Source of the DNA: an uncultured Chromatiales bacterium
Lineage (GTDB): Bacteria; Bacteroidota; Ignavibacteria; SZUA-365; CAYQST01
Direction: 5' to 3'
DNA length: 64,000 nucleotides
Assembly (NCBI GenBank): GCA_964449305.1
Contig: CAYUYM010000001.1
Location: 32,160 to 96,159 of the forward strand
The notes beneath the pieces are model-generated. The model made no database searches and was not told where the DNA came from. It was given only the letters and a program-made list of their open reading frames with translations. The position numbers and the translations under genes were made by a program. Position 1 is the first letter of the stretch. Every line of letters begins with the position of its first letter. Of the stretch, positions 4,909-44,978 are shown piece after piece.

Positions 4909-6371
4909 AGGCACAGCTCAAGCGCCTCGGGTCCGACAGCGCCGTCTATGGGATCAGCACCATCCTCGGGCGCTTCCTGAATTTCATCCTTGTCCCGTTC
5001 TACACGAACTTCCTGCCTGCATCGGATTACGGCGTCGTGGCTGCGGTGTATTCCTACATCGCCTTCATGAACATCGTGTTCACCTTCGGTCTGGAACCCG
5101 CCTTCATGCGCTTCCATGCCGACACCCCGCCCGAACGCAGGCGGATCCTGTTCAGCACACCGTTCTGGTCCATCACCATCATCGCCGTCGCCTCGGCCGC
5201 CCTGCTGTCCGCCTTCCCCACAGCCCTGTCGTCCGCCCTTCTCATTCCGCTCCAGTGGAGCGTCATCATCCCCATGGCCGCGGCCACCATCGCAATCGAT
5301 GCCATCAACGTCATCCCCTTCGCGCTTCTCCGCATGGACCGTCGAGCGAAGTACTTCGCCTCGGTGCGCTCCGTCTCCATCGTCATCAATGTCACTCTCA
5401 ACGTGCTGTTCGTGGCCGTGCTGCGCATGTCCATTGAGGCCATCTTCCTCGCGGGCCTCATCTCATCGCTCGCCTCCACGCTGCTGCTCGTCCCGGTCAT
5501 CCTCCGCCAGATCCGCCCCGCCATCGAGCGATCTCTCCTCCGCGCACTTCTCGCCTACGGCCTCCCCACCGTGCCCTCGGGCCTCGCCGCAATGGCCGTG
5601 CAGGTGGTCGACCGTCCCCTCATGCAGATGCTCTCCGACAACGCCACCGCGGGCATCTACCAAGCCAACTACAAGCTTGGCATCTTCATGATGCTCATCG
5701 TGTCCATGTTCCAGTATGCCTGGCAGCCCTTCTACCTCGGGATCGCGTCGGAGGAGAACGCCCCGCGGATCTTCTCCCGCGTGCTCACGTATTTCGCCCT
5801 CGTCGGCGTCACCGTCACGCTCATCGTGTCCTTTTTCATCGACGACCTCATCCGCGTCGAGCTTTTCCACCATCGGACCCTCATCGGCCGGGAGTACTGG
5901 TCCGGCGTGGGCATCGTCCCGATTGTGCTGCTGGCCTATCTCTGGCTGGGGATGAGCATGATCATCGAGGCGGGGCTGCTGATCCGGAAGAAGACCGGGC
6001 GGCTTCCTCTTGTCACGGGCCTGGCAGCCGTGGTGAACATCGCGGTCAACATCATCTTCATCCCGCGCCACGGCATCTACGGTGGCGCCTTCGCCACCCT
6101 CGCCGCCTACGTGGTGATGGCCGTGATGTATTACATCTTCACGCAACGCGTCTACCCGGTCCGGTATGAATTCGGCCGCCTCGCACGCCTCTTTGGCGCG
6201 GCCATCGTCGTCGTTGTGCTCTGGTACACCATCCCCACCCCCGGCATCGGAGCAATGCTGTGGAAGTGCCTTCTGCTTGTCGGCTATGCCGTCCTTCTGG
6301 TGATGTTTCGTTTCTTCGAGCCGCGGGAAATGCAGGAAATCCGCGCGCTGCTCAGCCGCTTCCGCCGCTGA
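4905..6371 (+). CDS. MOP-superfamily polysaccharide biosynthesis protein (Wzx-like oligosaccharide flippase)
   Basis: The 488-aa protein is polytopic, with about 12-14 TM segments. It has the Wzx/MurJ-like N-terminus GSDSAVYGISTILGRFLNFILVPFYTNFL. Confidence 0.7.
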   Translation: MKAQLKRLGSDSAVYGISTILGRFLNFILVPFYTNFLPASDYGVVAAVYSYIAFMNIVFTFGLEPAFMRFHADTPPERRRILFSTPFWSITIIAVASAALLSAFPTALSSALLIPLQWSVIIPMAAATIAIDAINVIPFALLRMDRRAKYFASVRSVSIVINVTLNVLFVAVLRMSIEAIFLAGLISSLASTLLLVPVILRQIRPAIERSLLRALLAYGLPTVPSGLAAMAVQVVDRPLMQMLSDNATAGIYQANYKLGIFMMLIVSMFQYAWQPFYLGIASEENAPRIFSRVLTYFALVGVTVTLIVSFFIDDLIRVELFHHRTLIGREYWSGVGIVPIVLLAYLWLGMSMIIEAGLLIRKKTGRLPLVTGLAAVVNIAVNIIFIPRHGIYGGAFATLAAYVVMAVMYYIFTQRVYPVRYEFGRLARLFGAAIVVVVLWYTIPTPGIGAMLWKCLLLVGYAVLLVMFRFFEPREMQEIRALLSRFRR

Positions 6372-7175: not shown

Positions 7176-7871
7176 TCAGAATGCTGAACCGAAGGAGAGC
7201 GCCACATAGAAGCCGTTGGCATTGGACATTGTACCCTGCTCCACACTCTGGATGCCCGATGGCAGGGGGATGATGTAGTACCGCACGTTCAGGCCCAGGA
7301 CCGCCGAGCGATCGAAACCAAAATTCGCGCCCGCACCGAGAAAGCCTCCGTACGTGAACTCGAAATGCCCCTTGCCGAAATCGCTGAAGAAGTCTGTGCT
7401 GTAGGGGGTGATGAAGAGAGCCACCGGTCCGCCACCGATGTTGACGAAGGGTCGGAAGTTGTCGGCGATCTCGTCTTGGAACAGCCGGTATTCCACGCTG
7501 ACAAAAAGCGGCAGGCGATGCACGCGGTTGATCTTGCCGTGGGCGTACTGCTCGCCCCAGTAGGTGTAGAAGTCCTTCTGCCGCGGGTCCTTCGCTTCGG
7601 AGAAGGAGAGGGAGGCGGTGAGGTTGACGCCCTCAGACAGCGAGCGGCGGTAGAAGACTCCGAGGCCGAAGCCGTCTGTGCCGATCATCGCATCCACGCC
7701 CCACGCATGGACGCGGGGTCGGAGGCTTTCCTCGCTCACGGGTGCGTCCTTCGAGCTTTTGGGGTCGGTGAAGATGATCCTCCCTCCGTCGTCCTGTGCG
7801 GCAAGCGGGGCGGCGGGTCCGGCAAGGAGGATGAGGGTGAGGCAGAGGGACGTGAGGATTCGTGCTGTCAT
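7176..7871 (-). CDS. Putative outer-membrane beta-barrel protein
   Basis: The protein has a signal peptide, MTARILTSLCLTLILLAGPAAPLAAQ. It shows alternating amphipathic strands and ends ...ALSFGSAF, the C-terminal Phe that is the OMP signature. The track ORF 7176..8666 is an N-terminal over-extension that runs through the oppositely framed esterase gene. Confidence 0.5.
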   Translation of the reverse strand: MTARILTSLCLTLILLAGPAAPLAAQDDGGRIIFTDPKSSKDAPVSEESLRPRVHAWGVDAMIGTDGFGLGVFYRRSLSEGVNLTASLSFSEAKDPRQKDFYTYWGEQYAHGKINRVHRLPLFVSVEYRLFQDEIADNFRPFVNIGGGPVALFITPYSTDFFSDFGKGHFEFTYGGFLGAGANFGFDRSAVLGLNVRYYIIPLPSGIQSVEQGTMSNANGFYVALSFGSAF

Positions 7872-7948
7872 GATGTCACTGTGGTTTTTTGCGGAATCTA
7901 TCCACGGCCGAAGGCAATCGCAAGGAAAAACGCCGACACCATGCGGAG

Positions 7949-8629
7949 TCAGAACGGGGAGAGGCCATCGTCGCGTGAGCGTGGATCGTCGGGAAGGATC
8001 CCGTACATGTGTCGGTGGAGAAAGGCGCGAATGTCCCGCACCTCGGCCGAGGGGATGCGGTGAGCGGTGTCGTACTCGTGATAGTCGAGGTTGACGTCCA
8101 TTTCGAGGAGCCGTGCGGCATCGGTGCGGGCAGTGTCGATGGGGATGACGTCGTCCCGCAGGCCATGGCCGATGAACACCGGCACGGTGCGGTTGGCGGC
8201 ATTGCGTTCCGCTTCGAGCGTATCCGGATCGATCACGTAGCCCGAGAGTGCCACCACTCCTCCCAGGCGTCGTGGGTGGCGGAGGGCGACATGGAGGCTC
8301 ATCGCCGCACCCTGGGAGAAGCCGACAAGGAAGATGTTCTCCGGCAGGACACCGTCCCGGATCTGTCCGTCGATCAGTGCCGTGATTTCCGCGTGGGCGG
8401 AAGCGATTTCCCGCGCGGGATCGCCGCCCTTCGTGAACCACGCGAACGCTCCGTGCAGCCGCTCGTCCTCGAACGGCGCAGAGGGGAGGATCCAGCGCGT
8501 GTGGAGGAACCCCATCTGGCGGACGAAGGGGAAGAAGGCATGCTTGTTCGCATTGCGGCCGTGCAGGCCGATCATCGCGAAGTCGACGCGCATCGCAGGA
8601 TCGTCGGGATGGATGAGAACATCGAGCAT
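7949..8629 (-). CDS. Phospholipase/carboxylesterase family alpha/beta hydrolase
   Basis: It carries GFSQGAAM, a GxSxG nucleophile elbow, and HG-type oxyanion residues. The family resemblance is to esterase / lysophospholipase. Confidence 0.7.
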   Translation of the reverse strand: MLDVLIHPDDPAMRVDFAMIGLHGRNANKHAFFPFVRQMGFLHTRWILPSAPFEDERLHGAFAWFTKGGDPAREIASAHAEITALIDGQIRDGVLPENIFLVGFSQGAAMSLHVALRHPRRLGGVVALSGYVIDPDTLEAERNAANRTVPVFIGHGLRDDVIPIDTARTDAARLLEMDVNLDYHEYDTAHRIPSAEVRDIRAFLHRHMYGILPDDPRSRDDGLSPF

Positions 8630-8721
8630 GGTGGACGTGGCACCTCCAATGGTCGGACAAGGACACCCCACGAAGTTACGCAATCCCCGCCGGTCTCCAA
8701 GGGGGCTGCAGGATCCTGTCA

Positions 8722-8765
8722 GGACCTATAGGTCTTCTTAGACTTCTTAGAAGACCTATAGGTCC
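8722..8765. repeat. AT-rich composite palindrome in the divergent esterase/lpdA promoter region
   Basis: The sequence is GGACCTATAGGTC-TTCTTAGA-C-TTCTTAGA-AGACCTATAGGTCC. Perfect 17-bp inverted arms surround a 10-nt core that is a direct 8-mer repeat. Each arm contains the self-palindrome CCTATAGG. The element is about 40% GC in a roughly 67% GC genome. It is flanked by G5 and C7 runs, with CTGCAGGATCC immediately upstream. Confidence 0.6.
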
Positions 8766-8902
8766 CCCCCTCCTGTTGCCGCTTGCCGTTCTTTGCTATT
8801 TTGCGGCTTCCCATCACGCCGCCTCCGCCCCGCGTTGGGAACCCACAGCGTCATTTCGTGCAGAAACAATACCACCGATCACAGAAGGAGTCCACCATCA
8901 CC

Positions 8903-10300
8903 ATGGCACAATCATTCGATGTCGTCGTCGTCGGAGCCGGCCCGGGAGGGTACGTCGCCGCCATTCGCGCCGCCCAGCTCGGCTTGAAAACCGCCTGCGT
9001 CGAGGCGAAACACCTCGGAGGCATCTGCCTCAACTGGGGCTGCATCCCCACAAAATCCCTCCTGAAAAATGCCGAGGCATGGGATACCGTCATGCACGCC
9101 CAGGACTATGGCATCTCCGTGGAGAACCCGACCTTCGATTTCTCCAAAGTGATCCAGCGCAGCCGCGGCATCGCCGATCGTATGTCCAAGGGTGTCGCCT
9201 TCCTCTTCAAAAAATACGGCGTCACCCACATCCAGGGCCATGGCCGCCTCCTCGACCAGGGGCGCCTCGGGGTGTTCGACAGGGAGGGGACGCAGCTCGA
9301 TGAGATCTCCGCACCCCACATCATCCTCGCCACCGGCGCCCGCCCCCGCGCCATCCCCGGCACGCAGTTCGATGGGAAACGCGTCATCTCTTACTTCGAG
9401 GCCATGACTCTCGATCACGTCCCACAATCGCTCATCGTCCTCGGCGCAGGCGCCATCGGTGTCGAGTTCGCCTGGTTCTACAGCGTGTTCGGCGCCAAGG
9501 TCACCATCGTCGAGATGATGCCCAACCTCCTCCCGATCGAGGATGAGGAGGTCTCCAAGGAACTCGAACGCAGCTATCGCAAACGGAAGATCGCGGCGAA
9601 AACCTCCTCCAAGGTCGAATCCATCGAGGTGCTCGACGAGGGCGTCCGTGTCACGGTGTCCAACGACAAGGGCACGGAGGTGCTCGAGGCGGAACTGGCG
9701 CTCATGTCCGTGGGCATCCAGGGCAACGTCGAACACCTCGGGCTCGAAACGCTCGGCATCACCCTTGAGCGTGGCTATGTGAAGGTCGACGAGTTCTATC
9801 GCACCAATGTCCCGGGCGTCTACGCCATCGGCGATCTGGTCGGCCCTCCCTGGCTCGCCCACGTGGCATCGGCCGAGGGCATCACCTGTGTCGAGGCCCT
9901 TGCCGGGAAGACGGTGTCCCCCATCGATTATGGCAACATCCCCGGCTGCACCTACTGCCAGCCGCAGGTCGCAAGCGTCGGCCTCACTGAGCGCAAGGCG
10001 CGTGAGGCGGGCTACGAGGTCAGGGTCGGGAAGTTCCCGTTCACGGCGTCGGGCAAGGCCGTGGCCATCGGCCATACCGACGGCTTCGTCAAGATGGTCT
10101 TCGATGCACAGTACGGACAGCTTCTCGGCGTCCACATCATCGGCCCCGAAGCCACCGAGCTCATCGCCGAGGCGGCCCTCGCCCGCACCTTCGAATCCAC
10201 CGAACACGAGCTCATCAAGACCATCCACGCCCATCCGACCCTTTCGGAGGCGATGATGGAGGCCGCTGCAGTGGCCTTTGGTGAGTCGGTGAACTTCTGA
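8903..10300 (+). CDS. lpdA: Dihydrolipoyl dehydrogenase (E3)
   Basis: The protein starts MAQSFDVVVVGAGPGGY, the FAD-binding motif. It has the redox-active disulfide GGICLNWGCIPTK and a C-terminal HAHPTLSE interface motif. An aggag RBS lies 12 nt upstream. Confidence 0.9.
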   Translation: MAQSFDVVVVGAGPGGYVAAIRAAQLGLKTACVEAKHLGGICLNWGCIPTKSLLKNAEAWDTVMHAQDYGISVENPTFDFSKVIQRSRGIADRMSKGVAFLFKKYGVTHIQGHGRLLDQGRLGVFDREGTQLDEISAPHIILATGARPRAIPGTQFDGKRVISYFEAMTLDHVPQSLIVLGAGAIGVEFAWFYSVFGAKVTIVEMMPNLLPIEDEEVSKELERSYRKRKIAAKTSSKVESIEVLDEGVRVTVSNDKGTEVLEAELALMSVGIQGNVEHLGLETLGITLERGYVKVDEFYRTNVPGVYAIGDLVGPPWLAHVASAEGITCVEALAGKTVSPIDYGNIPGCTYCQPQVASVGLTERKAREAGYEVRVGKFPFTASGKAVAIGHTDGFVKMVFDAQYGQLLGVHIIGPEATELIAEAALARTFESTEHELIKTIHAHPTLSEAMMEAAAVAFGESVNF

Positions 10301-18716: not shown

Positions 18717-18749
18717 GTAAAAAGAAGCCCGCCGATGTCGGCGGGCTTC
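18708..18749 (-). terminator. Rho-independent terminator of T9SS paralog A
   Basis: On the minus strand the sequence reads GCCCGCCGACATCGGCGGGC followed by TTCTTTTTACCAAAAAAAA. It lies 38 nt downstream of the stop at 18787. Confidence 0.75.
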
Positions 18750-18786: not shown

Positions 18787-20235
18787 CTATTTCACCATCG
18801 AGATCTTGATGTTCTTGCTGAACACCATGCCGGATTCCTGGCCTGCTGCGGTGAGCGTCACCATGTACGTGCCGGTCGGGAGTTCCGAGGCGTCGAACGT
18901 GATGCGGTGATCACCGGCATTGCGGACTTCGCGGCAGAGCACCGCCACCACCTTGCCGCTCATGTTCATCACCTCGAGCGTCACGTCGGACTTCTCGGAG
19001 ATGGCGAAGCGGATGGTGGTCGACGGGTTGAAGGGATTCGGATAGGCCTGGAGCAGATCGAAGTCCTCGACCGGGGCAGCCTTCGGCGTGCCATGCGAGC
19101 GGATCCAGTTCAGCTTGATGCCCACATAGTCGAAGTTGTTGATGAAGCCGTTGCCGTCGGCATCCATGTAGCAACCATCCGGCGTGTTCCACGGAATGCC
19201 CGCCTGTGCCTCCCAGATGAGGTAGGTCAGCGGGTTCGTCGATGCGTTCGCGTTGTAGCGCGCTGGGCCCACCAGCCAGTCCTGGCGGAGGTTGGCATCG
19301 AAGATGTACTTGTTGAGGGACTTCCTGTCGCCGTAGTTCACCACGCCGTCATTGTTCACGTCACCCGGCCACACGACGCAGGGCACCGTGTTCGGATTGA
19401 CCACCATCGTCTGCTGGTTCACCTTCACGTCCACCATGGCATTGCAGATGTCCATCACATTGAAGGTCACTTCCACCCGGTAGTAGCCCACCGGAAGGGA
19501 GGCGGTCGACACTTGGTATGTGCCCGTCACCGTTCCGCCGTTGAAGGCGACGTTGGTGTTCTCGGTCTTCACGAGTGTTCCGGTCGGTGTGAAGAGCTTG
19601 ATGGTCATGGCAACGTTGAATGTGCCATAGGGGCGGCTGATGGTGTAGTTGATGTTGAGGGGATTCGGCTTCTCGGCAAAGGCATCCGTGGTGAAGCTCA
19701 CCTGCGTCGCCGGGTCGGTGCAGATGTTGCGGATCTCGATTTCGCGGAAGTTCGGGTTGGACGTCTGCCCCACCGGCGCCATCACCCAGTTGGTGATGCG
19801 CATCTTTGTCGTGGTCTGCGGAGCGAACTGCAACACGCGGAGATAATCGGTGTACACAGTGGTGCTCCACGTGTAAACGGTGACCCATGCCGAACCGGTC
19901 CAGATCTGGATGTCGGAGCCGGCAAGATAGCGGTTGCTGATGCCACCGTAGTACAACGTGATCTCACCGAAGGTCACGGGAGCAGCCCATTCAAACATGA
20001 TCCAGTACGTGCCACCCGTGTGTGTGCCACCGGAAGTCCAGCCCCAGGGAGTGGAGCCGGCCGCAGCGATGACGCCGTCATTGTAGTTCGTGGGTGCGTA
20101 GGTTGTGGTGCCGCCACCGCTGTGCGTGCAGGTGGCACTCAGGGCGATGTTGGGCGTGGGGGATTGTGCCTGGGCAGACAGCGAGACGAATGCCAGCAGG
20201 AACACAGACAGAAGCAGAGTCGCGATTTTGGTCAT
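18787..20235 (-). CDS. T9SS-secreted protein, paralog A: discoidin (F5/8 type C)-like N-domain + double dockerin-like Ca-binding module + Por_Secre_tail CTD
   Basis: It has a signal peptide, MTKIATLLLSVFLLAFVSLSAQA. The segment NIALSATCTHSGG...YWIMFEWAAPVTFGEITLYY...IQIWTGSAWVTV is discoidin-like. The dockerin-like motifs are PGDVNNDGVVNYGDR and DADGNGFINNFD. The CTD is AYPNPFNPSTTIRF...KISMVK. Confidence 0.75.
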   Translation of the reverse strand: MTKIATLLLSVFLLAFVSLSAQAQSPTPNIALSATCTHSGGGTTTYAPTNYNDGVIAAAGSTPWGWTSGGTHTGGTYWIMFEWAAPVTFGEITLYYGGISNRYLAGSDIQIWTGSAWVTVYTWSTTVYTDYLRVLQFAPQTTTKMRITNWVMAPVGQTSNPNFREIEIRNICTDPATQVSFTTDAFAEKPNPLNINYTISRPYGTFNVAMTIKLFTPTGTLVKTENTNVAFNGGTVTGTYQVSTASLPVGYYRVEVTFNVMDICNAMVDVKVNQQTMVVNPNTVPCVVWPGDVNNDGVVNYGDRKSLNKYIFDANLRQDWLVGPARYNANASTNPLTYLIWEAQAGIPWNTPDGCYMDADGNGFINNFDYVGIKLNWIRSHGTPKAAPVEDFDLLQAYPNPFNPSTTIRFAISEKSDVTLEVMNMSGKVVAVLCREVRNAGDHRITFDASELPTGTYMVTLTAAGQESGMVFSKNIKISMVK

Positions 20236-20565
20236 ACTGTCCTCGATGCGTATGTGATTGGGAGAAAGATGTGACGTGCAGAGGATCTCTTTTACCACCA
20301 TGCTCCAAACATATCGACGATTTTTTTTTGTGGCAAGTGATTTCGCCCAATTCTCCAAGAAATGAGCAAAAAATCCGTCGTGTTTTTTCACGTCGCTGAT
20401 AGCGAACTTGCGTGTGTGAAGATTTTTCACTATGATCACCACGACACGTGCCAAGCGGTTCGCGCAAATCTCATGATTTACACGCGGATCCCAAAGCTTG
20501 GAGCATCACATACGGCATCGCGATCAAGTAATCCATCAACTGATACACCAATGCACGGAGTAGTC

Positions 20566-22131
20566 ATGACAAGTGCCACCAGGGGAAGGAGCATCGCCCT
20601 TCTCGCTCTGTCTCTCGTTCTTCTCGTCCTCTTGTTCCCAGCCGGAAACACATTCGCCCAGGCCGGCTGCCCGCTGACGCTGAATGTCCCCATGCAGTCC
20701 TCCAACGGCCAGTCGGGTGTGACGCTCGACATCACGGCGATCAAGTCCACCTCCATCTGCCGTTTCTGGATCCAGCCCTCCACCACAGGGTCGCATACTG
20801 TCCAGATCTGGAAGCACCCGAATGGCGTGGTCAACGCCAATGACGGCCTCTGGCAGTACATCGGCACCGCCACCTTCAACATGCCCACCACGGGCATCAA
20901 CTATGAGATCCCGGTGGACGTGAACGTCCTCCTTGATCCCGGGCAGAAGATGGGCTTTGCGATCTTCTCAAGCTCCACCATCCGCTATTCGACAGTATCC
21001 GCACCGCTCTTCTATGCCGACAGCTACATCAACGTGAACGTGAACCAGTATGGCATCACGGGTTCCACCACACCACCCAGCACCACGGCATGGAGCTTCG
21101 GTTTCTTCCCGCGCGGCCTTGTGGGACAGGTGCAATACAAGGAAGGCTGCTTCTTCCCGCCGGGCATCGCCTCCAGCTCGCTTGCCGACGCTGCGGGCAA
21201 CCCCATCGCCTACGCCGAGATTCCCAGCAATGTGTTCATCAAATACGGCCTCGACTACCCCGCTGGTGCATCCAATTTCACGCTCACGGTGACCTTCAAG
21301 AAGGTGGGTGTCGCCAGCCCAGCACCGCCGAGCACGATGTTCACCACCACCATCAACGTCATCAAGCAGGCTGGTCAGACGTTGAGCGGGCTCGCCCAGG
21401 TCAGCCTCCCGGCGACCCTGCAGCCGGGCTTCTATACCATCGAGTATACAGGCAACTCACAGAACTCCTGCGGCAACTACCAGGATTACACGCTCCCGAG
21501 CCAGGGTCTCATGCTCGTCAACCCGGGAACTGCACCCTGCGTCGTGTGGCCGGGTGATGCGGACAACGACACCCGCGTCACGTATGCCGATCGCGCCTAC
21601 ATCAACAGCTACATCTTCAACGCCGGCCAGCGCACAACCTGGCTCCAGGGTCCGGCTCGCTATATGGCCAACGCCTCCCCGATGGCCTATCTCAATTGGA
21701 CACCGCAGGCCTCCGTGCCCTGGCAGACCCCTGATGGTTGCTATGTGGACTGCGATGGCAATGGCGTCATCAACAACTTCGACCTCATCGCTGTCAAGCT
21801 CAACTGGATGAAGAACCATCCCCCGAAGGCGGGTGCCAACATCGCCGTCATGACCTTCGACATGACGCAGAACTATCCGAATCCCTTCAATCCCAGCACA
21901 CGGATCAGCTGCAGCGTTCCCGAACCCAGCATCGTGAAGCTCGTGGTCACCGACATGCTCGGCCGCACGGTGGCCACCCTTGTGGATGGACGTGTGGAGG
22001 CGGGGACATTTGAATCGCAGTTCGATGCCTCGTCGCTCAACAGCGGCAACTACATCGCCACCGTGGTGATGCAGGGCATCGAGTCCGGGCTCTCGTTCAG
22101 CAAGACCATCAAGATGACCCTGATGAAGTGA
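20566..22131 (+). CDS. T9SS-secreted protein, paralog B: unknown N-domain + same dockerin-like module + CTD
   Basis: It has a signal peptide, MTSATRGRSIALLALSLVLLVLLFPAGNTFAQA. The C-terminal 200 aa align with paralogs A and C: PCVVWPGDADNDTRVTYADR, WLQGPARY, DGCYVDCDGNGVINNFD and NYPNPFNPSTRIS...KMTLMK. Confidence 0.75.
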   Translation: MTSATRGRSIALLALSLVLLVLLFPAGNTFAQAGCPLTLNVPMQSSNGQSGVTLDITAIKSTSICRFWIQPSTTGSHTVQIWKHPNGVVNANDGLWQYIGTATFNMPTTGINYEIPVDVNVLLDPGQKMGFAIFSSSTIRYSTVSAPLFYADSYINVNVNQYGITGSTTPPSTTAWSFGFFPRGLVGQVQYKEGCFFPPGIASSSLADAAGNPIAYAEIPSNVFIKYGLDYPAGASNFTLTVTFKKVGVASPAPPSTMFTTTINVIKQAGQTLSGLAQVSLPATLQPGFYTIEYTGNSQNSCGNYQDYTLPSQGLMLVNPGTAPCVVWPGDADNDTRVTYADRAYINSYIFNAGQRTTWLQGPARYMANASPMAYLNWTPQASVPWQTPDGCYVDCDGNGVINNFDLIAVKLNWMKNHPPKAGANIAVMTFDMTQNYPNPFNPSTRISCSVPEPSIVKLVVTDMLGRTVATLVDGRVEAGTFESQFDASSLNSGNYIATVVMQGIESGLSFSKTIKMTLMK

Positions 22132-22335: not shown

Positions 22336-24060
22336 ATGAATTTGCGTACATCATCCAGAGTGCTGCTTGCAGCCTTGGTGCTGATGTTCGTTGCATCGAA
22401 CACCAGCTCTGCACAGGTGTCGCTGATGGCGTTCTCATCCACGCAGGGCACGTGGGTCCCCATCACAGCCGGCACACAGATCAATCCGGGATATGTGGAT
22501 GACAACTCGTTCCTCATCCCCATCGGTTTCACCTTCAACTTCGGTGGCAACAGCTACACCGATGTGTGGGTCAACTCAAACGGCGGTCTGTCCTTCGGTG
22601 CGTCCCAGACCTACGACTACCTTCCACTGGCCTACCCGTCTGCGGGCGTCACCGGCTCCATCGTGGCCATCGGTGGCGATCTTCTTGCGAACAATGCCGG
22701 GGACCTCATGTATGAACTCACGGGCCCGGCGGGCAACCGTGTGCTCACCGTGCAGTACACGGCGTTCGACTGGTACTCCTCACAGTTCTACGGCATGACC
22801 AACCAGTGGACCTGGCAGTTCAAACTCTACGAAAAGGGCGCCGTCGAAATCGTCTGGGGACCGTTCGTTCAGAGCCCTGTCTACACCATCTATGGTTGGG
22901 AGACCGGCATCCGTGGCGCCTCCTCCACCGACTTCCACCGCCGCGTGGTCGACTATGCCGTTGTCGGCAGCACCTGGGCGAATTCCACCCAGGCCCCGAC
23001 CAACGATCCGTACACGTACTACACATCCATCGGTCCGAACCTCATCCCTGCAGCAGGTCTCACCTATCGCTGGGCCTGCAACATCCCCGACAATGCGGTG
23101 CAGCTCGAGGTCCTCAACATGAACGACCAGCCGGCGACGGCCGTGGAGCTCCCGGGCAGCGTCAAGGTTGCCTACAACATCACCTACCCCGATCTCGGTG
23201 GCCCGATCGACCTCACTGTGAAGTTCTATCGCGTCGGGCAGGCGGTGCCGGAATACGTGTATGGCCCGGTCAGTCTCGTCAAGGCGCCGCTCACACCGCT
23301 TGTGGGCACGCTCGTCATCGCTCTTCCGACCTCCCTGCCCATGAGCTGGTATCGTGTGGATGTGGTGGTCAGCATGGCCAACCAATGCAACATCATCAGC
23401 GACAATCTCTTCACTCCCGGTGCCCTCCTCATCTACCCACAGGGGACGCCTGTGTGCAAGGTCTGGCCGGGCGACGTCAACAACGACGGCCTCGTGAACT
23501 ACGGTGACCGCAAGTCACTCAACAGCTACATCTACGACGCGAACATGCGCACCTCGTGGTTGAATGGCTACGCCAGGTACCGCATCAGCGCAAATCCGCT
23601 CTCCTACACCGAGTGGATCGAACAGGCAGGCCTCCCGTGGGGCAATGTCTGGAACGGCATCAATGCCTGCTACGTCGATGCCGATGGCAACGGGTACATC
23701 AACAACTTCGACTATGTCGCCATCAAGCTGAACTGGATGCGCTCCCATAGCGTGCCGAAACAGGGCGACCAGTCGCTGCTGTCCTTCGACATGGTTCAGA
23801 ACTACCCGAATCCGTTCAACCCGACCACCCGCATCCAGTACTCCACGCCGGAGAAGAGCCAGGTCAGCCTGGTGGTGACCGACATGATCGGCCGCACGAT
23901 TGCCACGCTGGTGAACGGAAACGTCACCGCCGGCGTGCATGACGTGTCCTTCGATGCCTCCAGCCTCACCAGTGGCACCTACATCGCCACGGTGAACATG
24001 ATCGGACTGGAATCGGGGCTCACCTTCTCACGAACCATGAAGATGCAGTTCGTGAAGTGA
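22336..24060 (+). CDS. T9SS-secreted protein, paralog C: unknown N-domain + dockerin-like module + CTD
   Basis: An aggaaaggag sequence lies upstream. The signal peptide is MNLRTSSRVLLAALVLMFVASNTSSAQ. The shared module includes PVCKVWPGDVNNDGLVNYGDRKSLNSYIYDAN, DGNGYINNFD and the CTD NYPNPFNPTTRIQYS...KMQFVK. Confidence 0.75.
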   Translation: MNLRTSSRVLLAALVLMFVASNTSSAQVSLMAFSSTQGTWVPITAGTQINPGYVDDNSFLIPIGFTFNFGGNSYTDVWVNSNGGLSFGASQTYDYLPLAYPSAGVTGSIVAIGGDLLANNAGDLMYELTGPAGNRVLTVQYTAFDWYSSQFYGMTNQWTWQFKLYEKGAVEIVWGPFVQSPVYTIYGWETGIRGASSTDFHRRVVDYAVVGSTWANSTQAPTNDPYTYYTSIGPNLIPAAGLTYRWACNIPDNAVQLEVLNMNDQPATAVELPGSVKVAYNITYPDLGGPIDLTVKFYRVGQAVPEYVYGPVSLVKAPLTPLVGTLVIALPTSLPMSWYRVDVVVSMANQCNIISDNLFTPGALLIYPQGTPVCKVWPGDVNNDGLVNYGDRKSLNSYIYDANMRTSWLNGYARYRISANPLSYTEWIEQAGLPWGNVWNGINACYVDADGNGYINNFDYVAIKLNWMRSHSVPKQGDQSLLSFDMVQNYPNPFNPTTRIQYSTPEKSQVSLVVTDMIGRTIATLVNGNVTAGVHDVSFDASSLTSGTYIATVNMIGLESGLTFSRTMKMQFVK

Positions 24061-39666: not shown

Positions 39667-42300
39667 ATGAACGGTTTCATGGACAAACGCCTGGGATTGA
39701 TCATCGCGCTCGCTGTCAGCTCGGCCCTGGCATTTGTGGTGCTTCCCACCATCCTGCCCTCCCCGGAAACGTATCTGAACGATCTGTCGGCGAGGTACAA
39801 ACTCGTCCTCGGATCCGCGAAGGGTGCGCGGAAGCATGCTCCCGGTCTGGAGTACTTCTACCGGACGCGTCTGTATGGCAATCCGGGAGTCAATGTGGAC
39901 CGGTTGCGGATGGATGCATCGGAAGCCATGGTGCGGCGCGAATCACAGGCGCTCAACAAGTCGGTGTTCACCAATGCGTGGACATCCATCGGCCCGCGAA
40001 ACCTGGCCGGTCGCATGAAGGCGATCGCATTCCACCCGGTCAATCATCAGATCGTCTATGCCGGAGCAGCCTCGGGTGGTGTCTTCAGGTCCACTGATGG
40101 TGGAGCCAACTGGCAGGCGGTCATGGACAATGCCCCCTCCATCCCTGTCGGGGCGATTGCCATCGACAAGAACAATCCCGATGTCGTGTTCGCAGGCACC
40201 GGCGAGCCGGTCATGGACATCTCCCGCGTGCGTTCGGCCCCCTCGTACTACGGCGTGGGTGTGATGAAATCCACTGACGCGGGTTCGACATGGGAGGCTC
40301 TGCCGTGGCCCACAAAATCCTCCGCGATCTTCCGCATCGTGCTGCATCCCACGTCGTCGGACACCATGCTGGTGGCGACACGATCCAACCTCATGAAATC
40401 CACCACGGGGGGAAAGACGTGGATCTCCTCCGCCCTTGCCGGCGTCTGCACGGATGTGCGGTACAAGATCGGCAATCCCTCCATCGTGTTCGCGGCGATC
40501 GGCAACGATGACGGCGGCATGAACAACGGCATCTGGCGTTCCGGTGCCGGCGGCGACCGTTACACCTGGGTGAAGTGTGCCACGAACTTCCCGTCCTCCG
40601 ATTCCACCGGCCGCATCATCCTTGCCCAGACGCCTGCCGATCCCAATCTCCTCATGGCCTTCGTCTCACTCAAGTACAGCCTTGTCGGCTCCTCCGGCAA
40701 CGATTTTCTGGCCCTGATGAAATCCACCGACGACGGTGCCACTTGGGAACGCGTCAAGACCAACCTGAAAAGCAACTACACCAACGGCCAGGCCTTCTAC
40801 GATTTCTGTGCCAACATATCGCCGCTCGACAAGAACGTCATCTTTACCGGTGGTCTCGAAGTGTACCGGTCCACGAACGGCGGTGTGAGTTTCTCGCAGG
40901 TCACCTCCGGCAACGAACCCGTGCATGTGGATCAGCACGTGATCGAGTTCCAGCCTGTCACAAACCACGTCTACATCGGAAACGACGGTGGCATCTACAA
41001 GAGCGTCACCAACGGGGCATCCTGGGACAACCTCGGTTACACGCTGCAGACCATCCAGTTCTACACCGTGCACGTGGATCCGAACGAGCCCCTGCGCATC
41101 CTCGGTGGCACGCAGGACAACGGAACACAGCGCCTCGCGCGCACAACGGACTGGAGCTGGGCCATCATCAACGGCGGCGATGGCGGCTATTGCGCCTTCG
41201 ACCCGAAGAACTCCAACACCATCTTCAGTCGCATCACCGTCTACAACTATCCGTTCCGCTCCACGAACGGTGGCAGCAGTTGGACCCCGTTGAACCGTGG
41301 TTTCCAGACAGACCTCGACCGCTCCAACTGGATCCCGCCGACCATCCTGGTGGGCACCACAAATCCCAAGCTGTACACGGCGACCCAGTTCGTCTATGTC
41401 GCCACCAACGTGACCAGCCCCATGTCCACCCCCACATGGAACGCGATCAGCACGGACCTGACGAAGCGCAATTCCTACGAGTCGGTGATCGCCACGATGA
41501 CTGTCGCCCCCAGCAACAGCAACGTGATGTACGTCGGCACCGGTGACGGCAAGGTGCAGAAGACGACCAATCTCAACGACGTCGAGGTGCAGTGGGAGGA
41601 TCTGACGCGCACGAACCTGCCGAACCGCTGGATCACCCGGGTGATCACCGATCCGAACAACGAGAACATCTGCTACGTCGGCTACTCGGGCACGGGCACG
41701 GGCCATGTGTTCAAGACGGTGGATGGCGGTGCGACATGGACCGACATCTCACTCAAGGCAGGCGGCTTTCCCGATGTCCCGGTGAACTCGATCGCCATCC
41801 CGAAGAACATGCCCAACGTGCTCTTTGTGGCGACGGACCTCGGCGTGCTTGTCACGACAGACGGCGGCACCTCCTGGGCGCGCTTCGGGACAGGGCTGCC
41901 GAACGTGGTGGTCTACGATCTCGCCATCAACTCGGCGAACCAGCTCATCGCCGCAACGCACGGTCGCGGGATGTGGATCACCGACGCCGTGGTGGGTGTG
42001 AACTCCACCGAGGTGGCCATCGACGGCGACTTCGTGCTGGAGCAGAACTACCCAAACCCCGTCATCATGTCCACACATTCCAGCACTGCGGTGAACTACG
42101 CCGTGAGCAGGCCGATGCATGTGACACTGTCTGTGTTCGACATGAACGGCCGCATGGTGCAGACCATCGACCGTGACCACAGCCAGCCGGGGCGCTACAG
42201 CGCCGTCATCTCGCCCGCGGATCTTCCGGCGGGTGTGTACTTCTACTCGATGACAAACGGAACGACGACACAGACGAGGAAGTTCGCCATCGTCCGCTGA
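39667..42300 (+). CDS. T9SS-secreted BNR/Asp-box repeat protein (sortilin/Ycf48-like beta-propeller)
   Basis: At least nine S-x-D-x-G-x-T-W Asp-box repeats are present, including STDGGANW, STDAGSTW, STTGGKTW, STDDGATW, STNGGVSF, STNGGSSW, TVDGGATW and TTDGGTSW. The CTD is NYPNPVIMS...RKFAIVR. The N-terminus is a signal anchor. Confidence 0.75.
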   Translation: MNGFMDKRLGLIIALAVSSALAFVVLPTILPSPETYLNDLSARYKLVLGSAKGARKHAPGLEYFYRTRLYGNPGVNVDRLRMDASEAMVRRESQALNKSVFTNAWTSIGPRNLAGRMKAIAFHPVNHQIVYAGAASGGVFRSTDGGANWQAVMDNAPSIPVGAIAIDKNNPDVVFAGTGEPVMDISRVRSAPSYYGVGVMKSTDAGSTWEALPWPTKSSAIFRIVLHPTSSDTMLVATRSNLMKSTTGGKTWISSALAGVCTDVRYKIGNPSIVFAAIGNDDGGMNNGIWRSGAGGDRYTWVKCATNFPSSDSTGRIILAQTPADPNLLMAFVSLKYSLVGSSGNDFLALMKSTDDGATWERVKTNLKSNYTNGQAFYDFCANISPLDKNVIFTGGLEVYRSTNGGVSFSQVTSGNEPVHVDQHVIEFQPVTNHVYIGNDGGIYKSVTNGASWDNLGYTLQTIQFYTVHVDPNEPLRILGGTQDNGTQRLARTTDWSWAIINGGDGGYCAFDPKNSNTIFSRITVYNYPFRSTNGGSSWTPLNRGFQTDLDRSNWIPPTILVGTTNPKLYTATQFVYVATNVTSPMSTPTWNAISTDLTKRNSYESVIATMTVAPSNSNVMYVGTGDGKVQKTTNLNDVEVQWEDLTRTNLPNRWITRVITDPNNENICYVGYSGTGTGHVFKTVDGGATWTDISLKAGGFPDVPVNSIAIPKNMPNVLFVATDLGVLVTTDGGTSWARFGTGLPNVVVYDLAINSANQLIAATHGRGMWITDAVVGVNSTEVAIDGDFVLEQNYPNPVIMSTHSSTAVNYAVSRPMHVTLSVFDMNGRMVQTIDRDHSQPGRYSAVISPADLPAGVYFYSMTNGTTTQTRKFAIVR

Positions 42301-42324: not shown

Positions 42325-42360
42325 GAAGCCCCGTTCCAGCGAACGGGGCTTCGTCGTTCA
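42325..42360 (+). terminator. Rho-independent terminator after BNR-repeat gene
   Basis: The hairpin is GAAGCCCCGTTC-cagc-GAACGGGGCTTC, a 12-bp perfect stem, followed by GTCGTTCAC. Confidence 0.6.
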
Positions 42361-42542
42361 CAGCGCCCCGCAGGATGCGAAACGGATTCTGCGCCAGCCC
42401 GGATTGCGATGTAACCATCTCACACATCCGATGTCTATATTTCGTGTTGACGCACAATGACAACACACATGATTCACGTCTCCCTTCGCTCATGTCCGTG
42501 GCAACAAGCATCCATCATATTCATCCACCCCAGGAGAACCCC

Positions 42543-43421
42543 ATGAAAAACCTCATCCTTCCGGTTGTGCTCGTCCTGGCACTTGCGCTCAGTGCATGCG
42601 ACAAGTCCTCTGTGGCACCCACCGGACCGACGAACAACAGCGTTGCAGCAGTGCAACTGCTTGGAAGCCTCGATCTGACAACGGATCAGGAGTTGCAGCT
42701 TGACCAGGCCTTCTACCTTGGTGAGGATCTCGAGAACACCCTCACACCTCGCCAGACCAAGGCGATCAATGATCTCGTCATCATGTTCACCCCGCCCGAC
42801 AGCATGGGTGGCCGCATCCGCCAGGCCGTCATGGACATGGACGCCATGATGTACTTCCGCCTGATCCTCAAAGCGAATCCGGACATGTCCGACGAGATGA
42901 AGAAGGCGATCTACGATCTCATCGTCGCCTCGGCGAAGAACCGCCTCGCCATCATCCTCGAGAACAAGGAAAACCCGGACGTCATCCGTGATCTGTTGAA
43001 GACGGAGCATGAGGCCCTCATCGCCGCCATCAACGAGCTCATCGGACCGGAAGCCGTGAAGAACGCCGAGGATCTCAAGGCGAAGATCGAGCAGGAACGC
43101 AAGGACCGCATGGAGAAGCTGCTTGAGCAGCGCATCCAGCGCCAGGTGGATCAGCTCACAAAGTTCCTCGGTCTCGATGAGGAGCAGGCAGCCGCCATCA
43201 AGGCCATCCTCATCGCCCAGGAGAAGCAGATCCAGGCGCTGCGTGAGCAGTACAAGGGCGATCCCGAAGGCTTCCGCGCCGCGTTGAAGGAACTCCAGGC
43301 GGCAACGGACAAGGCCATCTCCAACCTCCTCACCGACGAGCAGTTGAAAAAGTGGGAGGCTCTGAAGAACCGGCGTCATGGCGGTGGTGGTGGTCCCATC
43401 ATCATCGGGCCCCGTGGCTGA
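42543..43421 (+). CDS. Periplasmic LTXXQ-motif (Spy/CpxP/ZraP-like) lipoprotein
   Basis: The protein begins MKNLILPVVLVLALALSAC, a lipobox. The repeated LTPRQ / LDEEQ / LTDEQ motifs are typical of the CpxP/Spy family. The body is coiled-coil-rich, and a G5 tail is present. Confidence 0.55.
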   Translation: MKNLILPVVLVLALALSACDKSSVAPTGPTNNSVAAVQLLGSLDLTTDQELQLDQAFYLGEDLENTLTPRQTKAINDLVIMFTPPDSMGGRIRQAVMDMDAMMYFRLILKANPDMSDEMKKAIYDLIVASAKNRLAIILENKENPDVIRDLLKTEHEALIAAINELIGPEAVKNAEDLKAKIEQERKDRMEKLLEQRIQRQVDQLTKFLGLDEEQAAAIKAILIAQEKQIQALREQYKGDPEGFRAALKELQAATDKAISNLLTDEQLKKWEALKNRRHGGGGGPIIIGPRG

Positions 43422-43432
43422 CGCTCTGATCG

Positions 43433-43468
43433 AAAAAAACCCCGTTGCTTCAACGGGGTTTTTTTTCG
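43433..43468 (+). terminator. Strong rho-independent (bidirectional-type) terminator
   Basis: The sequence is AAAAAAA-CCCCGTTG-cttc-AACGGGG-TTTTTTTTT, 12 nt after the stop. Confidence 0.85.
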
Positions 43469-43583
43469 TCGTGCCATTGCTTTGTGATCGCCCGCACATT
43501 TCGTACCTTGACACGTCACAATGTGGCTTCCGTTCTCGCCAACAGTTTGCGTGTCCACCACACCCATCAACAGCATCGCACCC

Positions 43584-44978
43584 ATGGAAAAGTTCGATCT
43601 TTTTCAGCACCCGATTTTCATCGTCGATGATGAGCGGCAGAATCTCGCCCTGCTTCGCATGTGGATCGAGAAGATCTGGCGGTTCCCGGTCAGGGAGTTC
43701 ATCTCCCCGGGCGAGTGCATCAAGAACCTGCCCACCGAACCGAGCCTTGTCATCCTCGACATCATGATGCCGGAGATGGATGGCATCACCCTGCTCAAGC
43801 TCATCAAGAGCGACTATCCGCACATCCCCGTGGTGCTGCTGTCCGCACAGGGGAACGTGCAGATGGCGGTCGATTCCATCCACATGGGTGCCTTCGACTA
43901 CCTCACCAAACCGGTGGACAGGGACAGGCTCGAGGTCGTGCTCCGCAACGCGATCAAGGAGTTCCAGCTCGCCTGTGAGCTGCGGGACATGAAGAAGCGT
44001 CTGGCACAGAACACGGCCTTCACCCAGATCATCTCCATCGATGCCAGGATGAAGAAGGTGTTCGACCTCATCAAGAAATCGGCCAATTCCATGATCTCGG
44101 TTCTGATCCAGGGGGAGAGTGGCACGGGGAAGGAGCTTGTGGCGCAGGCGCTGCATTCCATGAGCATCCGTGCATCGAAACCCATGATCGTGGTCAACTG
44201 CGCCGCCATCCCATCGGAGCTTCTGGAGTCGGAACTGTTCGGCCATGAAAAGGGATCCTTCACCGGGGCCGACAGCATGAAGGTCGGCAAGTTCGAGGCG
44301 GCCAGTGGCGGGACGCTCTTCCTCGACGAGATCGGTGAGATGGAGTTCCAGTTGCAGGCGAAGCTTCTGCGGGCCATCCAGCAGAAGGAGATCACCCGCG
44401 TCGGCAGCGTGCATCCCATCCAGGTGGACGTGCGGATCATCTCCGCCACCAACAGGGATCTCATGCAGCTTGTCCGGGAGGGGCGCTTCCGCGAGGATCT
44501 GTATTACCGCCTCGCCACGTTTCCGATTCTGATCCCGCCTCTGCGCGAGCGTCCGGATGACATTGTTCTCCTGGCCGAGCATTTCCTGGAGCGCTCCATC
44601 GACCGGCAGCAGAAGGATGTCCGGGGTCTGTCCAAGGAGGCCATGATAGCCCTGTCACGGTATCAGTGGCCGGGCAATGTGCGTGAACTCCAGAGCGTCA
44701 TCGAGCGCGCCATCATCCTGGCCGACGAGCCCGTGATCACGCTGGAGCAACTGCCCCTGGAAATCGCTGAAACAGATTCCTCCTCGGGTGAGCAATATTC
44801 GGCCGGCGTCTTCAACATCCTTTCCCCCAACGATCTCGTGCCCTTCGAATCGTTCAAGAAGAGCATCATCAAGAAGGCCTACCAGGTGTGCGAGGGCAAC
44901 ATCAGCGAGGTGGCGCAGCGCCTGAACATCAGCCGGACCACGGTCTATCGCATGCTTGAGGGCGACACCAACCTCTGA
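43584..44978 (+). CDS. Sigma-54-dependent response regulator (NtrC family: receiver + AAA+ + Fis-type HTH)
   Basis: The receiver is IFIVDDE...ILDIMMPEMDG...K. The AAA+ domain carries Walker A GESGTGKE, the GAFTGA-like loop GHEKGSFTGA and ESELFGHE. The C-terminal HTH is ISEVAQRLNISRTTVYR. Confidence 0.85.
   Translation: MEKFDLFQHPIFIVDDERQNLALLRMWIEKIWRFPVREFISPGECIKNLPTEPSLVILDIMMPEMDGITLLKLIKSDYPHIPVVLLSAQGNVQMAVDSIHMGAFDYLTKPVDRDRLEVVLRNAIKEFQLACELRDMKKRLAQNTAFTQIISIDARMKKVFDLIKKSANSMISVLIQGESGTGKELVAQALHSMSIRASKPMIVVNCAAIPSELLESELFGHEKGSFTGADSMKVGKFEAASGGTLFLDEIGEMEFQLQAKLLRAIQQKEITRVGSVHPIQVDVRIISATNRDLMQLVREGRFREDLYYRLATFPILIPPLRERPDDIVLLAEHFLERSIDRQQKDVRGLSKEAMIALSRYQWPGNVRELQSVIERAIILADEPVITLEQLPLEIAETDSSSGEQYSAGVFNILSPNDLVPFESFKKSIIKKAYQVCEGNISEVAQRLNISRTTVYRMLEGDTNL

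Follow-up and report, generated by a model that had tools for sequence, protein, structure and literature searches.

The window, by which we mean the whole 64-kb stretch of DNA analysed here, carries type IX secretion markers alongside ordinary housekeeping genes, and the proteins closest to its dihydrolipoyl dehydrogenase (LpdA) and to the esterase encoded beside it come from metagenome-assembled genomes (MAGs) labelled Ignavibacteriae, Bacteroidota or Kapaibacteria. The two genes are divergently arranged, the esterase gene on the minus strand and lpdA on the plus strand, as the preliminary description of this DNA had stated, and the spacer between them holds the palindrome considered in this work. 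The features of the locus are the following:

7949 to 8629, minus strand: carboxylesterase gene (Abhydrolase_2), with its ATG at 8629, 92 nt from the element
8706 to 8716, plus strand: CTGCAGGATCC, overlapping PstI and BamHI sites, native and outside the repeat
8722 to 8765, no strand: 44-bp near-perfect palindrome, 40/44 positions self-complementary
8722 to 8738, no strand: left perfect 17-nt arm, GGACCTATAGGTCTTCT
8723 to 8734, no strand: nested perfect 12-bp palindrome GACCTATAGGTC, copy 1
8734 to 8751, plus strand: perfect tandem duplication of the 9-mer CTTCTTAGA, at the centre of the element
8749 to 8765, no strand: right perfect 17-nt arm, AGAAGACCTATAGGTCC
8753 to 8764, no strand: nested perfect 12-bp palindrome GACCTATAGGTC, copy 2, 30 bp from copy 1
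8766 to 8767, no strand: CC, two further bases common to the window and to the Logan contig L014, identity with which ends after 8767
8903 to 10300, plus strand: dihydrolipoyl dehydrogenase gene (lpdA), with its ATG at 8903, 137 nt from the element

No recombinase, integrase, transposase or RAYT gene is found among the called ORFs of the 64-kb window, in agreement with the earlier remark that the window holds no recombinase gene. The element has no regulator gene within 8 kb; the one DNA-binding regulator of the window, a sigma-54 response regulator, is encoded at 43521-44975, 35 kb away. The window shows no GC-skew switch and no other dispersed non-coding repeat family, and a search of the 64 kb for further copies of the element, whole or in parts and with mismatches allowed, returned none. 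Around the element no sigma-70-like promoter was found, by a scan whose coverage does not extend to Bacteroidota-type promoters.

Repeats and hairpins of other kinds do occur in the window. Three neighbouring ORFs have paralogous coding repeats in common (19025-19234, 21678-21893 and 23663-23759) at 72-86% identity, and a Pfam check of two of these ORFs showed C-terminal sorting domains of type IX secretion in both. Three GC-rich hairpins stand in contrast to the AT-rich palindrome at 8722-8765. One, at 43433-43465 (AAAAAAACCCCGTTG...CAACGGGGTTTTTTT), lies in the gap after an ORF ending at 43421, has A/T runs on both sides and looks like a bidirectional terminator; the other two are GAAGCCC...GGGCTTC stems, at 42325-42352 between an ORF ending at 42300 and an ORF starting at 42375, and at 18724-18749 just past the stop of a minus-strand ORF (18787-20442). 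For the palindrome itself, a role as an intrinsic terminator was rejected, the stem being AT-rich and a T-run being absent.

Anatomy of the palindrome

The palindrome reads GGACCTATAGGTCTTCTTAGACTTCTTAGAAGACCTATAGGTCC and is composed of GGACCTATAGGTC-TTCTTAGA-C-TTCTTAGA-AGACCTATAGGTCC at window positions 8722-8765; the element is present as it had been quoted, but its length is 44 bp and not 45 bp. It can be read in two ways, as 21-nt arms (one mismatch) around a central CT or as perfect 17-nt arms around a 10-nt spacer, and its dyad symmetry is broken at the central CT and at one other position pair alone. Several details of the preliminary description needed adjustment. Its perfect 17-bp inverted arms were found exactly as claimed (8722-8738 and 8749-8765), and the palindrome CCTATAGG that it saw in each arm is there, but with a larger full extent, the 12-bp GACCTATAGGTC. 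The direct 8-mer repeat also exists, at 8735-8742 and 8744-8751, but overlaps the 17-nt arms where it was said to be enclosed by them; and the G5 and C7 runs said to bracket the element are real but differently placed, G5 (8701-8705) being 16 nt away and C7 (8764-8770) including the last two bases of the element.

The 44-bp palindrome is genuine and goes beyond chance. Its 17-nt arms are the window's longest inverted repeat among those with loops of at most 12 nt, compared with maxima of 9-11 nt across twenty simulated windows (first-order Markov); the DNA hairpin of the element has a dG of -17.7 kcal/mol (z = -6.6 against shuffles); and CCTATAGG occurs at two sites in the 64 kb, both in the element, where 0.06 would be expected. 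The GC content of the element is 43%, against 62% for the window and 61% for the remaining intergenic spacer, values that replace the roughly 40% and 67% given previously, and the element is the sole AT-rich patch of the spacer.

When one unit of the central 9-bp tandem duplication is removed, a perfect 35-bp palindrome (17-1-17) is restored, and the 44-bp element is therefore a derived form of that palindrome, produced by the duplication. The spacing of the two GACCTATAGGTC copies was accordingly 21 bp before the duplication and is 30 bp now. The asymmetric spacer, which had been put forward as a feature of a recombinase target, is this same 9-bp tandem duplication.

No GTAG or CTAC occurs within the 44 bp, and no target-site duplication is evident at either plausible boundary, the flanks reading ...CTGTCA and CCCCCT... 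on the two sides. TCCTGT is present on both sides (8714-8719 and 8771-8776) at unequal distances from the 12-mer palindromes, 3 and 6 nt, and the flanks at 8703-8712 and 8771-8780 pair weakly (GGCTGCAGGA against TCCTGTTGCC, 8/10). Both of these flank resemblances are probably due to chance, and an extension of the element by the outer GGCTGCAGGA/TCCTGTTGCC pairing was rejected as too weak and too asymmetric.

Orthologous loci and public collections

Comparison with orthologous lpdA upstream regions had been suggested as a check, and at three related loci (L009, L011 and L012, whose LpdA proteins are 82%, 79% and 78% identical) the element is absent, the gene upstream of lpdA also being different from the window's. 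It is likewise absent upstream of the esterase gene in L017, L021, L022 and L023 (80%, 60% and 57% identity), where the upstream gene is co-directional. Together these eight spacers, from four lpdA and four esterase orthologous loci, contain neither the motif nor any perfect inverted repeat of at least 8 bp. An insertion footprint could not be read by aligning the spacer with those of relatives, because nucleotide homology ends at the start codons.

The outer-membrane protein gene at 7176-7928, next to the esterase gene, has as its orthologue (62% identity) the gene immediately adjoining lpdA in L009, the closest lpdA relative available; the join across the palindrome is therefore sound, and the window is not a chimera there. 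The corresponding L009 spacer, which separates the outer-membrane protein gene from lpdA, is 550 bp long and carries GTGAATRAGT-like tandem repeats together with GC-rich CCCGAGC / GGGGTCGAGGG repeats (2080-2145 and 2190-2280); the intergenic position beside lpdA seems to collect repeats in this lineage. Around the esterase, gene order is different in each relative examined: upstream of it the window has the divergent lpdA, L021 and L022 have a gene for an aromatic amino acid hydroxylase, and L023 has a CYTH gene; the adjacency of the esterase and outer-membrane protein genes is retained in L017, L021 and L022. In L009 the outer-membrane protein gene and lpdA are neighbours, with no esterase gene separating them.

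When one genome from each of 185,579 species was scanned for the two 12-mers at a distance of 10-30 nt, 8 loci were recovered, in unrelated phyla. All proved to be short arrays built from a 9-bp unit, G-W-C-Y-T-A-T-A-R, with the 12-mers 27 or 36 nt apart; none of the 8 has the architecture of the element, and the source genome seems to be absent from the collection scanned. One arm searched against JGI metagenomes gave a single one-arm match, the rate expected by chance, and neither one arm nor the inner 26-mer had a match among the IMG/VR viral contigs. BLAST against plasmids, phages and 5,426 E. coli genomes returned nothing relevant to the element, Rfam gave sub-threshold microRNA-hairpin noise alone, and a literature search for the motif string found nothing relevant.

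The GWCYTATAR arrays recovered by the genome scan are AT-rich and self-complementary, comprise 5-9 units (e.g. GACCTATAG GTCTTATAG) and sit in host genomes of 50-64% GC, most of them directly after stop codons and between convergent housekeeping genes (rplK, transketolase, succinyl-CoA ligase). They lie at L001 4661-4714 and 5517-5552, L002 5121-5165, L003 250-267 and 488-560, L004 6539-6601, L005 2296-2352, L006 6541-6588, L007 7199-7234 and L008 3049-3120, and their hosts are MAGs of Puniceicoccales (3 loci), Acidobacteria (2), Syntrophobacteraceae, Heliobacteriaceae and an unclassified bacterium. No paper containing these array strings was found, and the arrays may be an undescribed type of dispersed repeat.

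Among viral contigs, the 12-mer pair occurs inside long collagen-like Gly-Pro-Ile / Gly-Pro-Gln coding repeats (L018 7527-7936 and L019 11828-12215), where GGACCTATA-type 9-mers also arise as Gly-X-Y codon repeats. In a phage contig, L020, CCAGGACCTATAGGTC occurs twice as a direct repeat 27 nt apart (6240-6285), within a short gap between genes, next to small ORFs and putative terminase genes, and this repeat has 15 nt (CAGGACCTATAGGTC) in common with the left edge of the window element. Since the pair is found both within collagen-like coding repeats and as a phage direct repeat, it has several independent, unrelated origins.

A second sequence context

Three short Logan contigs, independent assemblies of environmental reads from the runs SRR10083293, SRR10083294 and SRR10083296, likewise encode the esterase protein. 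The run accessions turned up in no paper. Logan is built on a k=31 de Bruijn graph in which k-mers seen once are dropped and each 31-mer is held once per accession (PMC12424806). One of the three contigs, L014 (SRR10083296), is 100% identical to window positions 7667-8767, the whole element included, and then continues past 8767 for 102 nt that match nothing anywhere in the window, so that it diverges before reaching TCCTGT. This foreign flank is the 3' end of another gene, here gene X (...RAVNEGYSKDYEAMIRKYFEELQKALPGK, stop), whose stop codon lies 13 nt before the element, and its codon style as read from the sequence is GC3-rich, like that of the window genes. A second contig, L015, starts inside the element and carries the PstI/BamHI string and the esterase-proximal 31 nt of the element; the third, L016, ends short of both string and element.

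The 31-mer that holds the last foreign base of L014 reaches 28 nt into the element and across the junction of the 9-bp duplication, which means that in real reads the 44-bp derived form is attached to another flank. A single 1.2-kb contig from a k=31 assembler is what speaks for a second copy, and the L014 junction could represent either a second genomic copy threaded onto the esterase side by the k=31 graph or a true alternative arrangement. Because the same idiosyncratic 9-bp duplication is found in both contexts, their resemblance is best read as common descent by copying of DNA, and not as the outcome of selection on positions contacted by protein. Logan contig ends do cluster near the element, but this was rejected as evidence of branching: contigs of ~1 kb had been chosen for the whole esterase gene, which introduces a selection bias.

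The 29 residues of gene X gave no candidates in a padded protein search, and their exact sequence is not in the protein collection; they have no Pfam match, tblastn against all fetched loci returned noise alone, and back-translation of the peptide matched nothing among the viral contigs. The aromatic amino acid hydroxylase and CYTH genes that precede the esterase in relatives were both ruled out as gene X.

Possible nature of the element

Our best explanation, held tentatively and with somewhat less than even confidence, is that the element is a low-copy, REPIN/MITE-like extragenic palindromic repeat and not a dedicated gene switch; the label describes its probable behaviour and claims no membership. 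The element would be a short, AT-rich, hairpin-forming palindrome, a piece of copied and probably non-autonomously mobile DNA that landed in the variable esterase/lpdA spacer of an uncultivated, Bacteroidota/Ignavibacteria-like bacterium. The two contexts would then be two copies made by a process acting on the hairpin, the enzyme responsible being a transposase or recombinase whose gene lies elsewhere, in the way that RAYT serves REPINs. Any effects on lpdA or the esterase would be incidental, and might include a stable stem-loop in transcripts that cross the element or an AT-rich, cruciform-prone patch in the divergent promoter region.

This repeat reading is supported by the extragenic position of the element in both contexts (a divergent spacer in the window, 13 nt past a stop codon in L014), by the two nested 12-bp palindromes set in inverted 21-nt arms that form a stable hairpin, by the L014 junction, where the derived 44-bp form stands beside a flank of matching codon style, and by the lack of conservation at orthologous loci, where the spacer is a variable spot. 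It has to be set against the single copy in 64 kb, with no degenerate copies; the absence of a target-site duplication, of GTAG/CTAC and, in the window, of a transposase or RAYT gene; a length of 44 bp, below the usual MITE size; and the finding of no further copy in the 185,579 reference genomes, the JGI metagenomes or IMG/VR, collections from which the source genome seems to be absent. L014, too, could be a structural variant of one single-copy site.

The likeness to known extragenic repeats is partial. The GTAG/CTAC tetranucleotide is typical of the ends of RAYT-mobilised REPs, and neither form of it is found in the element. A REPIN is a pair of oppositely oriented REPs separated by a spacer (PMC3337134, PMC3116915), and the element resembles RAYT-mobilised REPs and REPINs in being a short extragenic palindrome with two-level symmetry that forms one long hairpin (PMC3116915, PMC3337134), in being found in a spacer and just past a stop codon, and apparently in being copied within a genome; it has the stem-loop, and the two-level symmetry of its arms is a structural resemblance alone. 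REPINs, however, are usually 70-110 bp long, are present in tens to hundreds of copies and have a RAYT gene and a conserved GTAG end, whereas the element is 44 bp long, occurs once per 64 kb with a second context in L014, and lacks both GTAG and, in the window, RAYT. With bacterial MITEs (Correia/NEMIS, RUP) it shares a non-coding nature, an intergenic position, patchy distribution between relatives and terminal inverted repeats (17 nt perfect, or 21 nt at 95%). It differs from them in showing no evident target-site duplication, in being shorter and in consisting entirely of inverted repeat, with no internal unique sequence.

Site-specific recombination, though unlikely, is the main alternative. 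The palindrome would be a recombination site, or the boundary of a strain-variable segment, at which a recombinase encoded elsewhere cuts the asymmetric centre, either a serine-type enzyme acting on 21-CT-21 or a tyrosine-type enzyme; the arrangements lpdA/site/esterase and gene X/site/esterase would then be the products of an inversion, or the empty and occupied attachment site of an unbinned mobile element. The identity between the window and L014 ends 2 nt past the palindrome, in line with this alternative, and the absence of gene X from a protein collection that holds the MAG's proteins fits an unbinned or strain-variable segment. A near-perfect dyad around a central dinucleotide is the layout of serine-recombinase sites, and the element has it, with 21-nt arms, one arm mismatch and a centre of CT. 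Its ~40-bp imperfect dyad with a non-palindromic central dinucleotide, and an alternative flank that starts at the site edge, recall hix/gix sites, res subsites and the att sites of large serine integrases; yet serine invertase half-sites are 12 bp, the attB and attP of large serine integrases are not identical and have few bases in common, not at least 44, and the element has no recombinase gene nearby or anywhere in the 64-kb window.

Tyrosine-recombinase core sites (loxP, FRT, dif) likewise have inverted arms around an asymmetric spacer, but their arms are 11-13 bp and their spacers 6-8 bp, lengths that neither 17-10-17 nor 21-2-21 reproduces. A dif site in particular was rejected, the XerD-arm motif being absent and the window having no skew switch. 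Because the window lacks the X flank altogether, an inversion would need to extend over more than 55 kb rightward or more than 8.7 kb leftward, and the single alternative junction, that of L014, may be a chimeric path through two copies, since a k=31 graph can join dispersed copies without recombination. The suggestion of a recombinase target made in the preliminary description thus keeps the compatibility of the L014 junction and of 21-CT-21, but is left with no recombinase in the window and a non-canonical geometry. A more specific version appears less likely still: an undescribed site-specific recombination system of an uncultivated FCB-group bacterium would use the palindrome for crossover or attachment, and would thereby swap lpdA and gene X upstream of the esterase. 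Such a system could involve a trans-acting serine recombinase at the central CT, and either a large inversion or an unbinned mobile element ending in X.

That the palindrome is a transcription-factor operator is, in our judgement, about as doubtful as that specific crossover scheme. Two dimers would bind the two GACCTATAGGTC palindromes and control lpdA and/or the esterase together with other members of a regulon that have the same site; the palindrome centres are 30 bp apart and were formerly 21 bp apart, exactly two helical turns. The divergent intergenic position, 92 and 137 nt from the start codons, the two identical perfect 12-bp palindromes and the AT-richness of this one patch of the spacer all agree with an operator. 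The element also has a likeness to tandem palindromic operators such as the C-boxes (GACT-N3-AGTC) of restriction-modification controller proteins, which are paired identical GAC-...-GTC palindromes, although C-boxes are ~15 bp apart centre to centre, against 30 bp here, and neither a restriction-modification system nor a regulator is found nearby. The operator reading is weakened because the two properties that would favour it, conservation at orthologues and similarity limited to contact positions, both fail: none of the lpdA and esterase orthologues examined has the site conserved upstream, or an alternative palindrome in its place, and the second context has the whole derived form, including the non-contact centre and the duplication, 13 nt past a stop codon. 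The lack of a regulator gene within 8 kb, with the single DNA-binding regulator 35 kb off, also tells against it, as may the lack of a detected sigma-70-like promoter, in a scan not covering Bacteroidota-type ones. The repressor operator for lpdA and/or the esterase that was originally proposed has lost ground on these same points.

It is improbable that the palindrome is a functionless, single-locus product of local template switching or slippage, with the L014 flank coming from another organism or joined through a chance 30-mer. The element has no second copy in the window and no match in any of the public collections scanned, the spacer cannot be aligned between relatives and collects odd repeats, and the centre is a simple slippage-type duplication, all of which would suit such an origin; but the 30-mer in common is not a matter of chance, the duplication junction is the same in both contexts and the codon style of the flank matches.

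There is very little to recommend the element as a diverged member of the GWCYTATAR 9-bp intergenic arrays seen in MAGs of several phyla. The two have the 12-mer GACCTATAGGTC in common, the inner units GTCTTCTTA and GACTTCTTA fit the degenerate unit at 7/9 positions, and both are AT-rich in GC-rich genomes and lie beside stop codons. The common 12-mer, however, was imposed by the search pattern and its pair also turns up in collagen-like coding repeats and a phage direct repeat, and the spacing in the element, 30 nt and originally 21 nt, does not divide by 9, unlike the 27 or 36 nt of the arrays, so that the 9-nt register is not kept.

An artefact, whether a cloning-vector or Golden-Gate scar or an assembly foldback, was suspected from CTGCAGGATCC, which does stand at 8706-8716, 5 nt upstream, and could also be suspected from outward-facing BbsI sites (GTCTTC...GAAGAC) within the arms, but it is effectively refuted, given that the source is an environmental MAG, that the string was assembled independently from two further read sets (L014 and L015), that the flanks are not inverted copies of each other, that synteny across the element agrees with a relative and that plasmids, phages and 5,426 E. 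coli genomes hold no match; the string and the two BbsI sites are therefore coincidences in native DNA.

The palindrome is real and well defined, new in sequence and of a known general kind. Nothing shows control of lpdA by the element, and its annotation as an operator is unwarranted. Its value would be wider only were it a true recombination site, as a compact 44-bp target for a new recombinase. If, as we tentatively favour, it is a small mobile palindrome, it would mark a spot at which short-read assemblies of the source genome can be mis-joined, and would add a REP/MITE-like element to a poorly studied, uncultivated lineage.
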